Shown here: positions 9,001-12,000 of the stretch, piece by piece
How positions within the stretch are numbered: position 1 is the stretch's first letter
How the letters are laid out: each line of letters starts with the position of its first letter
Made by a program: the position numbers
IMG/VR virus record: IMGVR_UViG_2582580752_000019
DNA from: a virus
Taxonomy: Duplodnaviria; Heunggongvirae; Uroviricota; Caudoviricetes
Direction: 5' to 3' (one strand)
Length of the DNA: 49,396 nt

Positions 9001-12000
9001 TTATTTGTTTGTTAGTGATTGAAACATCAGGTTTTTTTGTGATGTTCGTGGTCTGGTGTTCTTGATCAAGCCATCCGACAGGCAGGTCGAAACATTTTTC
9101 GATGTGCCGTGCCATGCTGTCACCGATATTTTTAGTAGCACCATCTCCCATAAACCTGCTGGTCTGGGTTGGCTCGCGATCAATCATGGTGGCAAAGGAA
9201 GAATTCCCGCCAACACCATCTCTCAGTTTTCTGGCGTTAGACCGCCGGATGTCATGGACTGTTTTCATAAAGAAATTAAAACCTTTGTACCGATAAGGTA
9301 CAAGTATCTTGAAGGTTCATATTAATCATGTAATATGTATATTGGAGGTACATATTGTATGAAAGCGTATTGGGACTCTTTAACCAAAGAACAGCAGGGC
9401 GAGTTGGCCGGAAAAGTTGGCTCAACACCAGGCTACTTACGGCTGGTTTTCAATGGTTATAAAAAAGCCAGTTTTGTGCTGGCTAAAAAACTTGAGCAAT
9501 GCACGTCAGGTGCAATTACGAAATCTGACTTAAGACCGGATATCTATCCGAAAGATTAACAGAACACCTTCAATTTTTAACCACAGAACGATGAGGCTAA
9601 CCGTGGGTAAGTATCACTGGAAAGTAGAAAAACAGCCTGAGTGGTACGTGAAAGCTGTCAGAAAAACTATCGCAGCGTTGCCGGGTGGTTACGCTGAAGC
9701 AGCTGACTGGCTGGATGTAACAGAGAACGCATTATTTAACCGCCTTCGTGCCGATGGCGATCAGATTTTCCCGCTGGGATGGGCAATGGTTTTACAGCGC
9801 GCGGCTGGCACTCACTACATTGCGGATGCTGTCGCACAGTCTGCTGGTGGGGTGTTCGTATCGCTTCCTGAAATTGAGGAAGTAGAGAACGCCGATATAA
9901 ACCAGCGCCTGCTGGAAGTCATCGAACAGATCGGGAATTACTCAAAGCAGATTCGTTCGGCAATCGAAGATGGGGTCGTGGAGCCACACGAGCAGACAGC
10001 AATTAATGATGAGTTGTATCTGTCAATTTCGAAGCTCCAGGAGCATGCAGCACTGGTCTACAAAATCTTTTGCGCTCCAGAAAAGAGTGACGCCCGCGAG
10101 TGTGCAGCTCCGGGCGTCGTGGCGTTTTGTGTCTGTGGAGAAACTAACGCATGAACAGTTTAACGGCAAATAACCGTTTGTCGCAACAGCTGGTGGTCAG
10201 TGTCGCTGAACACCTGTTGTTACGGCATGAATGCAGATTACCAAATCACCTGGCTGTAAGTAACCACAGAGAACTTTACCTGACTGTGGGGGGCGAGTTG
10301 TGCAGGAACTTAACCGCTGGTTTCGTGACGGAAGAGGGCTTTATGTCCATGTTATTCGTTGGGAGCCAGAAACACAGCGCGTTATCTATCTTCGCAAAGA
10401 CTACCCGCATGAGTGCTTTAGTCCTTTGTGGAAATTCAGGCGTGATTTTGTTGAGTGTGAAGGACCACCAGCACATTGATTCTGCCATTCCGGGACGTTA
10501 CACTGTTCAGGCACCTTATAAAGCGGGTGCCGGGCGTGGAAACCCGGAATTCACCAAAGCGCACAACCGCGCTCTTGCGGTTTTTTTGTGTCATGAGCAG
10601 CATTACGCCCAAATTATGGTGGGGCGTGCAGGGCCAACTTCGGTTGGGCCGGGTTCTTTGGTGACCGGTATTTCCACCCCTGTACGTCTCACCACCAATA
10701 AGGTCGTGGAAAGCCTTGGTGGTGAGTTATTAAAAATCACCAAAGAGGCTGCCATCATGGCTACGATCCCAACCCTCACTCAACCCGAAATTGCCATCGT
10801 TGATGGTCAGGCTGTTACTTCATCCCTGGCTGTTGCCAACTTCTTCTCCAAACGTCATGACGATGTTCTGAAAAAGATCCGCACGCTTGAATGCTCCGCA
10901 TCATTCACTGCCCGCAATTTTTCGGTGAGTGATTACACCGATTGCACAGGCCGCAAACTACCTTGCTATCAAATAACCCGCGACGGCTTTGCGTTTCTTG
11001 CTATGGGTTTCACGGGTAAACGTGCTGCCCAGTTCAAAGAGGCATACATCAATGCCTTTAACCAGATGGAGAAACAGCTTTCAAAGCTCGCTGTACCGAG
11101 TGACGTTGCACATAACGCCAGCGTTCTCTATTCCTACATTTCATCAATTCATCAGGTCTGGTTGCAGCAGCTTTATCCCATGCTGGAAAAAGCTGAATCA
11201 CCGCTGGCTGTAAGTCTGTATGACCGAATTAACGATGCGGCATTTCTTGCCCGTCTTATTCATTCGTCGCTGAACTCTTCAGAGGTAAGGGGGCGCAAAT
11301 GATCCGAAATATTTTCAAACGGTTTACCAATCAAACTTTCCGTTGTCCTCGCCCGGGTCAGTGGTACACCACGCCTGCAGGGCATGTTCTACGTGTTAGC
11401 CTGGTTGACCGTGAATGTCAGAAGGTGATTTGTGAACCGCTGGGTCGTAATTACCGCGTCAGTATGCCGCTCATAGCCTTTCGCTCCGGAAAAAACATGA
11501 AGCATCTCGGAGGTGCAGCATGAGTATGGAGCTGATGGTTAAAGCGATGAAAATTCGAGTGGGTAATCCATTGCGAAAACTGGTTCTGATCAAGCTGGCT
11601 GATAATGCCAGCGATCAGGGTGAGTGCTGGCCCAGCTACCAGCATATTGCTGACCAGTGCGAGATTAGCAAACGTTCTGTGATGAATCATATTGCGGCCC
11701 TTTGTGAGTCCGGGCTGGTAAAAAAAGTCACCCGGAAAGGTGAAAAAGGTAACTCAAGTAATATCTATCTCCTTCATCTGGATGGTGCAGGAGATTCACT
11801 AGGGGGTAGTGCAAATAATTCACTATCTGGTGCAGCAAATTCACCAGGTAGTGCAGGAGTTGCACCAGGGGGTAGTGCAGGAGATTCACCCAGAACCAGT
11901 CACTCTTTTGAACCAGTCAAAGAACCAGTCAATGAACCAATAGCTGTTGGTGCATCTGCTGATGAGTCTGTGCGAGTTCGTTCAAACCGACCGGAATACT

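Follow-up and report, generated by a model that had tools for sequence, protein, structure and literature searches.

The locus at 10151-11302 of the IMG/VR virus record IMGVR_UViG_2582580752_000019 raises the question of how its genes are to be read. The record is a stretch of 49,396 nucleotides (nt) from a virus of the Caudoviricetes, here called the window, and the locus is an open reading frame (ORF) in which a Rha-family regulator is preceded by a long N-terminal extension. A preliminary description of this DNA had left three options, namely one fused protein, two genes, or a frameshifted gene. Its coordinates were all correct when the sequence was read again; none of its three options fits. 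Three coding units, which overlap or are nested, lie in the locus together with two RNA genes, and the RNA genes, which that description had overlooked, were found by an Rfam search inside the extension itself. We consider it likely that the locus is an RNA immunity module of the P4/P1 type, placed in a lambdoid early-right operon and overlaid by a frame whose job is being translated. The features concerned, all on the plus strand, are as follows.

9591-10154, plus: CII/YmfL-like regulator gene (PF06892, E 1.2e-14; NCBIfam YmfL equivalog, 170 bits)
10151-11302, plus: bridging ORF, P4 eta-like, 383 codons (1152 nt)
10288-10293, plus: run of six G residues (G6), Shine-Dalgarno-like, with a 6-nt spacer to the DUF4222 GTG
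10300-10479, plus: DUF4222 gene, 59 amino acids (aa), GTG start, in the -1/+2 register of the bridging ORF
10476-10504, plus: putative isrK promoter
10511-10587, plus: isrK/P4-seqA-like small RNA (sRNA) with an intrinsic terminator (RF01394)
10612-10699, plus: C4/P4-CI-type antisense RNA (RF01695)
10616-10618, plus: ATG in the bridging frame at the C4 5' end
10706-10746, plus: C4 target sites a2 and b2, the downstream pair
10757-11302, plus: nested Rha-family gene, 181 aa, candidate antirepressor

A probable RNA immunity module

The isrK family (RF01394) matched 10511-10587 with 67 bits against a cut-off of 50, and the terminator scan placed a stem at 10565-10582, followed by a U/T run, at the end of this RNA. 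The C4 family (RF01695) matched 10612-10699 over the full model (1-87 of 87) with 83.6 bits against a cut-off of 45, and an Rfam match to the a1/b1 target at 10498-10550 was below threshold. The C4 RNA has a b' hairpin loop (UCUUUGGUGA, 10655-10664) and an a' segment (UUUCCAC, 10671-10677). Two pairs of sites in the window are exact complements of these segments (7 nt for a', 9-10 nt for b') at fixed positions. The upstream pair, a1 (GTGGAAA, 10536-10542) and b1 (TCACCAAAG, 10551-10559), lies inside isrK. The downstream pair is a2 (GTGGAAA, 10706-10712) and b2 (TCACCAAAGA, 10737-10746); b2 overlaps the Rha Shine-Dalgarno sequence AAGAGG (10743-10748), and the Rha ATG at 10757 sits 11 nt after b2.

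A pattern scan of IMG/VR gave 91 unique RNA-module sequences, which fall into 45 distinct combinations of b' loop and a' junction, here called types. The exact complement of the cognate a' heptamer was present upstream in 44 of the 45 types and downstream in all 45, against 3-4% for non-cognate heptamers, and the complement of the cognate b' was present upstream in 23 and downstream in 36 of them, against 4-7%. Moreover, cdtI, an Stx1 phage and phage 2H10 have flanking genes near-identical to those of the window, and in them a1, b1, the C4 loops, a2 and b2 are all swapped together. A joint change of loops and targets is the behaviour known for the immunity types of P1/P7 C4 and P4 CI. Taken together, the comparisons indicate that the RNA switch is real and type-specific, the four sites co-varying with C4 across the 45 types. 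These specificity types are a natural data set for the rules of RNA-RNA recognition.

The putative isrK promoter consists of a -35 element TTGATT (10476-10481), a 17-nt spacer and a -10 element TACACT (10499-10504), with an expected start near 10511. It aligns with the TTGACA/TATATT of Gifsy-1-type loci and with the position of P4 PLE, and the region is nearly invariant in the relatives. The ATG at 10616 matches the position of the first AUG of Gifsy-1 orf45 (nt 106 from the isrK start), and from there 47 codons run stop-free into Rha.

Two tandem isrK-C4-Rha modules of different specificity types were observed in locus L060 (at 7026 and 7895), where the stop of the first Rha gene overlaps the start of the second bridging ORF as ATGA.

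The Rha and DUF4222 genes

The window was aligned to mEp460, cdtI, ST64B, an Stx1 phage and phage 2H10, and substitutions were tallied by codon position. Both this comparison with syntenic phages and a homology search of each frame separately had been proposed in the preliminary description. The searches found DUF4222 in the second frame and, in the long frame, only Rha and Phage_ASH; the alignment gave a third-position substitution bias that supports the DUF4222 and Rha frames and not the extension.

The Rha domain begins only after the internal Met at 10757, as had been noted, with the strong ribosome-binding site AAGAGG at a spacing of 8 nt. PF09669 matched the long ORF at aa 223-308 only (E 1e-30). 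The 181-aa form was matched at aa 12-110 by PF09669 (107.6 bits against 29.9, E 5e-31) and by TIGR02681 (105.1 against 45.95), and the Rha-family profiles begin near its residue 1. Third positions of the Rha frame dominate within 10757-11302, with 69 of the 120 substitutions, and the protein has anti-repressor matches in PHROG.

The second frame, open from 10264 to the TGA at 10477-10479 and shifted by -1 from the long frame, turned out to be a real coding frame. It contains the DUF4222 domain (PF13973, E 9.5e-14; 51.1 bits against a cut-off of 27), and phrog_1343, a 59-aa family, matches the window DUF4222 end to end (1-59 of 59, E 1e-36). Within 10300-10479 the substitutions fall on DUF4222 third positions, which are second positions of the long frame, in 14 of 20 cases in ST64B and 27 of 41 in the Stx1 phage. 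Because the substitutions concentrate on the third positions of their own frames, DUF4222 and Rha are read as protein-coding in those frames, and the pattern indicates that DUF4222 (10300-10479) is a gene separate from the long ORF, starting at a GTG of its own. An NCBIfam search found nothing for the extension or for DUF4222, and a literature search on DUF4222 function found the term in no title or abstract.

The preliminary description had also suggested that the second frame is reached by a -1 slip in the G6 run. A programmed frameshift of this kind would join 10151-10293 to the DUF4222 frame and give a protein of about 110 aa. The geometry of a -1 shift from the long frame into the DUF4222 frame is correct, and SfIV and mEp390 annotate 112-aa ORFs in the region. 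These ORFs, however, are the bridging frame without any fusion, and DUF4222 lies in the other register there too. The run is poorly kept: it is G5 in ST64B and absent or shortened in the Stx1-phage, L113 and SfIV variants, and the sequences that replace it in other variants are GGGGGA, GAAGGAGA, GGAGGG and ACAGGTAA. The DUF4222 start, on the other hand, is aligned as GTG, ATG or TTG in 31 of 31 variants, each after a purine-rich element. This start is preceded, at a distance of one codon (3 nt), by an in-frame stop in ST64B, the Stx1-phage type, L113 and mEp390; in ST64B the stop falls between the G run and the start. Among the 31 variants neither a conserved slippery run nor a downstream frame devoid of its own start was found, and phrog_1343 is a family of 59 aa. 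We regard the frameshift as scarcely credible. Because the start is conserved, the run is variable, stops lie upstream and the PHROG family has 59 aa, the G6 run is, as far as these alignments indicate, the Shine-Dalgarno sequence of the DUF4222 gene and not a slip site.

The locus has also been read as a single conventional gene, which the preliminary description had named as the finding in homologues that would overturn its view. The copy in enterohaemorrhagic Escherichia coli (EHEC) O26:H11 strain 11368 (NC_013361.1; L132, 1252-2403) is 100% identical to the window, and RefSeq/PGAP gives there one 1152-nt coding sequence (CDS), a "Rha family phage regulatory protein" of 383 aa, with no DUF4222 CDS and no non-coding RNA (ncRNA). 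The GenBank records of mEp460, cdtI and ST64B have the same single-CDS annotation. Homologues are thus annotated as one gene, but the substitution patterns make this annotation inadequate. If it were right, the roughly 200 N-terminal residues would be a functional domain, Ash plus more, fused to Rha. It would agree with the PF10554 Phage_ASH match at aa 117-213 of the long ORF (10499-10790) and with the PHROG 821 and 995 profiles, which take in part of the extension. However, the Ash match coincides exactly with the isrK and C4 genes, the substitutions of 10300-10479 hit third codon positions of DUF4222, which in the long frame are second positions, and there is no periodicity in 10480-10756. 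Moreover, the extension is mosaic, being replaced or split by unrelated inserted genes in the relatives, and the Rha-family profiles begin at the residue-1 region of the 181-aa form. Because codon periodicity is absent and the Ash match coincides with the RNA genes, the extension is not a functional domain, and a functional N-terminal domain was rejected on the codon-position counts and this coincidence. The fused protein is therefore very improbable, and the RefSeq single 383-aa protein is a mis-annotation. The Phage_ASH family appears largely to model the translation of the two RNA genes, as in the P4 eta region, and not a folded domain.

The bridging reading frame

The long frame was described as open for about 600 nt upstream of Met 10757, starting at an ATGA overlap with the CII-like gene, and the sequence agrees. 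The ATG at 10151 overlaps the TGA at 10152-10154 of the CII/YmfL-like gene, with GGAG 10 nt upstream. The frame has no stop in 201 codons upstream of 10757, against 12 and 9 stops in the other two registers, and a composition-matched simulation gave a mean of 7.2 stops and a probability of no stop, P(0), of 5.5e-4. In all six aligned sequences (the window and five diverged relatives) the Rha frame is stop-free for about 550-650 nt upstream, against 7-12 stops in each of the other registers, and this openness survives 80-100 substitutions and indels of exactly 3 and 6 nt. Substitutions in the same region have no codon periodicity, neither in 10480-10756 (counts by codon position 11/12/10, 16/13/17, 2/6/5 and 7/5/3), which speaks against long-frame coding, nor in 10155-10299 (7/12/13). 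Because periodicity is missing, the frame upstream of 10757 is, on these counts, under no amino-acid-level constraint, and yet it is kept stop-free. Such a frame offers a clear example of selection that acts on translation itself.

The 150 nt or so from the CII stop to the DUF4222 start (10151-10299) also lack coding periodicity and carry a 6-nt in-frame indel in ST64B, and the Rfam search of the window gave no match there. This segment seems to be only a translated spacer. An opposite-strand gene that would hold the frame open was looked for and rejected, as the minus strand of 10151-10756 has only ORFs of 58-70 aa.

An RNA-only pattern scan of IMG/VR found 120 loci, 104 of them unique. The frame from the conserved ATG at the C4 5' end is open for at least 150 nt upstream, across isrK, and fused to the downstream gene in 80 of the 104; a further 10 are intermediate between this fused layout and that of Gifsy-1. 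The upstream sequence is complete in 76 of the fused-type loci; in 48 of these the first ATG and an upstream stop overlap as ATGA, in 23 distinct junction contexts. At least nine unrelated upstream genes are coupled in this way to the bridging frame, at distances of 159-960 nt; five of the 23 contexts, in which the upstream frame has no Met and may be spurious, were left out of this count. CII/YmfL types are among the coupled genes, as are a homologue of the 74-aa ORF of the window and, where two modules lie in tandem, the Rha gene of the one in front.

Insertions between DUF4222 and isrK were found in L084, L113 and L121 (about 600-800 nt) and in L085, and the bridging frame runs through them over 960-1250 nt. 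The L084 insert is a Gp49/HigB-like toxin with an HTH_3 antitoxin, and that of L113 and L121 is a TumE toxin with its partner HVO_A0114; these cassettes are on the opposite strand and inside an unbroken sense frame of more than 1 kb. The gene inserted in L085, at 854-1246 of the oriented stretch and just upstream of isrK/C4, belongs to the ProQ/FinO family of RNA chaperone type (Pfam E 1e-13) and lies in another register. The embedded genes were synonymously recoded with phage codon usage, and the share of runs with a stop-free overlapping frame was counted. The P(0) values below are to be read with the ascertainment risk that L084, L113 and L085 were chosen for their long frames.

Window DUF4222: P(0 stops in the bridging frame) = 0.024
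L084 insert genes: P(0 stops) = 0.0008
L113 insert genes: P(0 stops) = 0.0003
L085 insert gene: P(0 stops) <0.00025

These figures bear on a rival explanation, by which the long ORF is untranslated upstream of 10757 and open by chance and by conservation of the RNA genes, with gene callers over-extending a 181-aa Rha protein. The missing codon periodicity upstream of 10757 would agree with this explanation, as would RNA genes conserved for their own reasons and the stop found 6 nt before the C4 ATG in Gifsy-1-type loci. The segment-wise P(0) values are also modest, at 0.11 for 10154-10299, 0.07 for 10481-10756 and 0.024 for DUF4222. Their joint probability, however, is about 5e-4, and chance would have to account for the frame staying open in variants with 80-100 substitutions and in-frame indels, and across inserts of 600-800 nt with real genes in them, which in some cases are encoded on the opposite strand. 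A non-gene would not be expected to be ATGA-coupled to nine or more different upstream genes, and the homologous eta of P4 is reported as translated (PMC10111431). We judge a frame open by chance to be unlikely.

In SfIV (L007, 1271-1609) and mEp390 (L006, 1277-1615), phages that have no isrK/C4 module, the annotated 112-aa "hypothetical proteins" (phrog_1170, e14 YmfM-like) were found to be the bridging frame, ATGA-coupled to a CII-like gene and crossing an unannotated DUF4222 gene.

Proposed mechanism and comparison with known systems

The stretch at about 9.3-12.3 kb has the genes of a lambdoid immunity and early-right region. Besides the features given above, it contains the following.

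8594-9268, minus: CI-like repressor gene
9335-9559: Cro-like gene
11299-11523, plus: 74-aa ORF, whose ATG overlaps the Rha stop as ATGA (phrog_1153, E 1e-45)
From 11520: replication-type gene, toward which the early operon runs on from the 74-aa ORF

The steps proposed here for a lambdoid RNA switch with a translated overlay draw on homology to P4 eta/kil and to Gifsy-1 isrK-orf45-anrP; the complementarity and the selection on the frame were computed directly. In the lysogen, PR would be off and only the internal isrK promoter would fire, by analogy with those systems. Its product would be the short isrK sRNA ending at 10587, together with some read-through RNA that is processed to C4. C4 may then pair with a2/b2, whose complementarity is observed, and block the entry of ribosomes at the Rha start. 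The untranslated RNA would be prone to termination, and Rha and the downstream replication genes would be off. The a1/b1 sites of isrK may titrate C4, as by analogy with Gifsy-1.

Upon infection or induction, transcripts would come from PR, and ribosomes that end the CII-like gene would re-initiate at the ATG at 10151. They would pass through DUF4222, the isrK terminator, C4 and a2/b2, and their passage would prevent the RNA structures, the function of the terminator and the access of Rho. PR transcripts would thus be immune to the RNA repressor, yield a long Rha isoform and free the internal start. The locus could yield isoforms of 383 aa and, from 10616, of 228 aa, as well as the 181-aa Rha protein.

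The closest layout is that of P4. The Rfam families RF01695 and RF01394 match the P4 CI RNA (8420-8507) and seqA (8615-8692) on the minus strand, in the same order as in the window, and both RNA regions lie inside ORF199 (eta, 8767-8168), whose ATG shares bases with the stop codon of ORF88, the gene before it. Kil occupies the final 65 codons of eta and starts MATTLTPSHPE, and the window start at 10757 reads MATIPTLTQPE. P4 eta and the window ORF align in BLASTP with E 2e-10; the alignment, at 28% identity, takes in the RNA-gene region and the nested start. Common to both is a long ORF, ATGA-coupled upstream, that runs over an internal promoter, an isrK/seqA-type and a C4/CI-type RNA, with a shorter in-frame gene starting just after the second target site. 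Unlike P4, the window has as its nested gene a 181-aa Rha-domain protein and not the 65-aa Kil, the gene coupled to its long ORF is of the CII/YmfL type, from a lambdoid phage, and not alpA/ORF88, and this ORF also crosses an embedded DUF4222 gene. One account of P4 (PMC10111431, citing Forti et al. 1999) describes a constitutive promoter inside eta, whose transcript is soon terminated via CI-seqA interactions and processed to CI. According to the same source, Kil is a nested short form of eta, full-length eta is translated solely from the upstream promoter and coupled to an upstream alpA homologue, and its translation stops premature termination (PMC10111431).

The Salmonella Gifsy-1 isrK-orf45-anrP locus shares with the window isrK, a conserved AUG at the C4-like 5' end and an antirepressor-type gene downstream. 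In Gifsy-1, isrK is transcribed from a promoter of its own and its terminator is leaky, the leader ORF (orf45) from the conserved AUG is translated and required for translation of the antirepressor, and the C4-like RNA STnc1160 arises from the read-through transcript (PMC4825925). It was also reported that the nucleotide sequence of this leader is conserved and its peptide sequence is not (PMC4825925). Orf45 differs from the window in being bounded by a stop 6 nt upstream and in ending AUGA on anrP, a layout also seen in L012; in the window, the frame is open up to the CII stop, the leader from 10616 is fused to the downstream gene, and that gene has a Rha domain and not ORF6N.

The immI locus of P1/P7 has in common with the window a C4-family RNA with two loop segments complementary to upstream and downstream target pairs, a downstream pair that masks the ribosome-binding site before an antirepressor-type gene, and co-varying specificity types. 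The direct DNA match of the window with P1 c4 is weak. Unlike P1, the window has no separate icd-like ORF at 10699-10757, its a2/b2 mask the Rha start itself, and it has an upstream bridging ORF. The immI operon of P1 (icd, ant1/ant2) has its own C1-controlled promoter. In N15, the isrK/C4 part of the window gave a DNA match at gp32, beside an annotated terminator; the antirepressor operon of N15 has a C4-like processed RNA.

By sequence, then, the window locus has the marks of C4, of isrK (promoter apart), of Rha and of DUF4222, and it has the P4 eta/kil layout; it departs from the Gifsy-1 layout in its fused leader and from the P1 layout in having no icd-like ORF. It is a lambdoid version of the known P4 eta/kil kind with a nested Rha-family gene and an extra embedded DUF4222. 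What may be new is the evidence of a bridging frame kept open, under no protein constraint, across inserted genes on either strand.

Several points weigh against a module overlaid by a translated frame. Translation from 10151, activity of the promoter at 10476-10504, processing of C4 and the effect on termination are all inferred for the window phage. The promoter scan did not call the isrK promoter, which has only 8 of 12 consensus bases, and because of this it is proposed from the alignment only. Ribosomes on the bridging frame would overrun the DUF4222 start, which leaves joint expression unaccounted for. P4 relies on the Rho-dependent terminator timm; the visible terminator of the window is intrinsic, and for this reason the termination step may differ from that of P4. 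The choice of the recoded loci for their long frames, noted above, belongs here as well. Moreover, 14 of the 104 unique loci have the Gifsy-1 layout, in which a stop precedes the ATG by 6 nt and the separate leader ORF is short (45 codons in L012). In L089 the loss of one nt (cgagtt to cagtt), at a place between the G run and the GTG of DUF4222, severs the frame from its coupled ATG; this break is the sole one among the window-type loci and could be due to a decaying prophage or a sequencing error.

A wider idea, which we put forward tentatively, is that the bridging frame is selected purely for translation, which would insulate against RNA immunity, Rho and intrinsic termination, and that it filters insertions into the early operon. 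If this is true, inserts such as DUF4222, the ProQ/FinO-family gene and the opposite-strand toxin-antitoxin genes would be tolerated only with a codon choice that leaves the sense frame stop-free, over as much as some 1.2 kb. That SfIV, mEp390 and e14 also have the bridging frame over DUF4222 suggests that the principle reaches beyond loci with an RNA switch.

Distribution and neighbouring observations

Of 5,426 complete E. coli genomes, 553 contain at least 80% of the 1.25-kb region (10100-11350) and 2,948 match some part of it. A P4/P1-type RNA immunity switch is placed by the locus between CI/Cro/CII and the replication genes in a prophage of EHEC strains. Because of this position, the locus probably adds a second, sequence-type-specific control layer over an antirepressor-like protein, and possibly over replication.

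In the ST64B prophage, the ncRNA STnc1310 and two genes downstream of the CI repressor were reported to be highly expressed under peroxide and nitric-oxide shock (PMC7067206). These may be the ST64B copy of the module, which is 82% identical.

Farther along the window, a tRNA-Met/Arg/Arg cluster lies at 17286-17537, followed by STnc100 at 17647-17855 and, on the minus strand, the anti-GcvB sRNA AgvB at 17856-17915. This order (17286-17915) presumably resembles the late-region layout of Stx-type phages.

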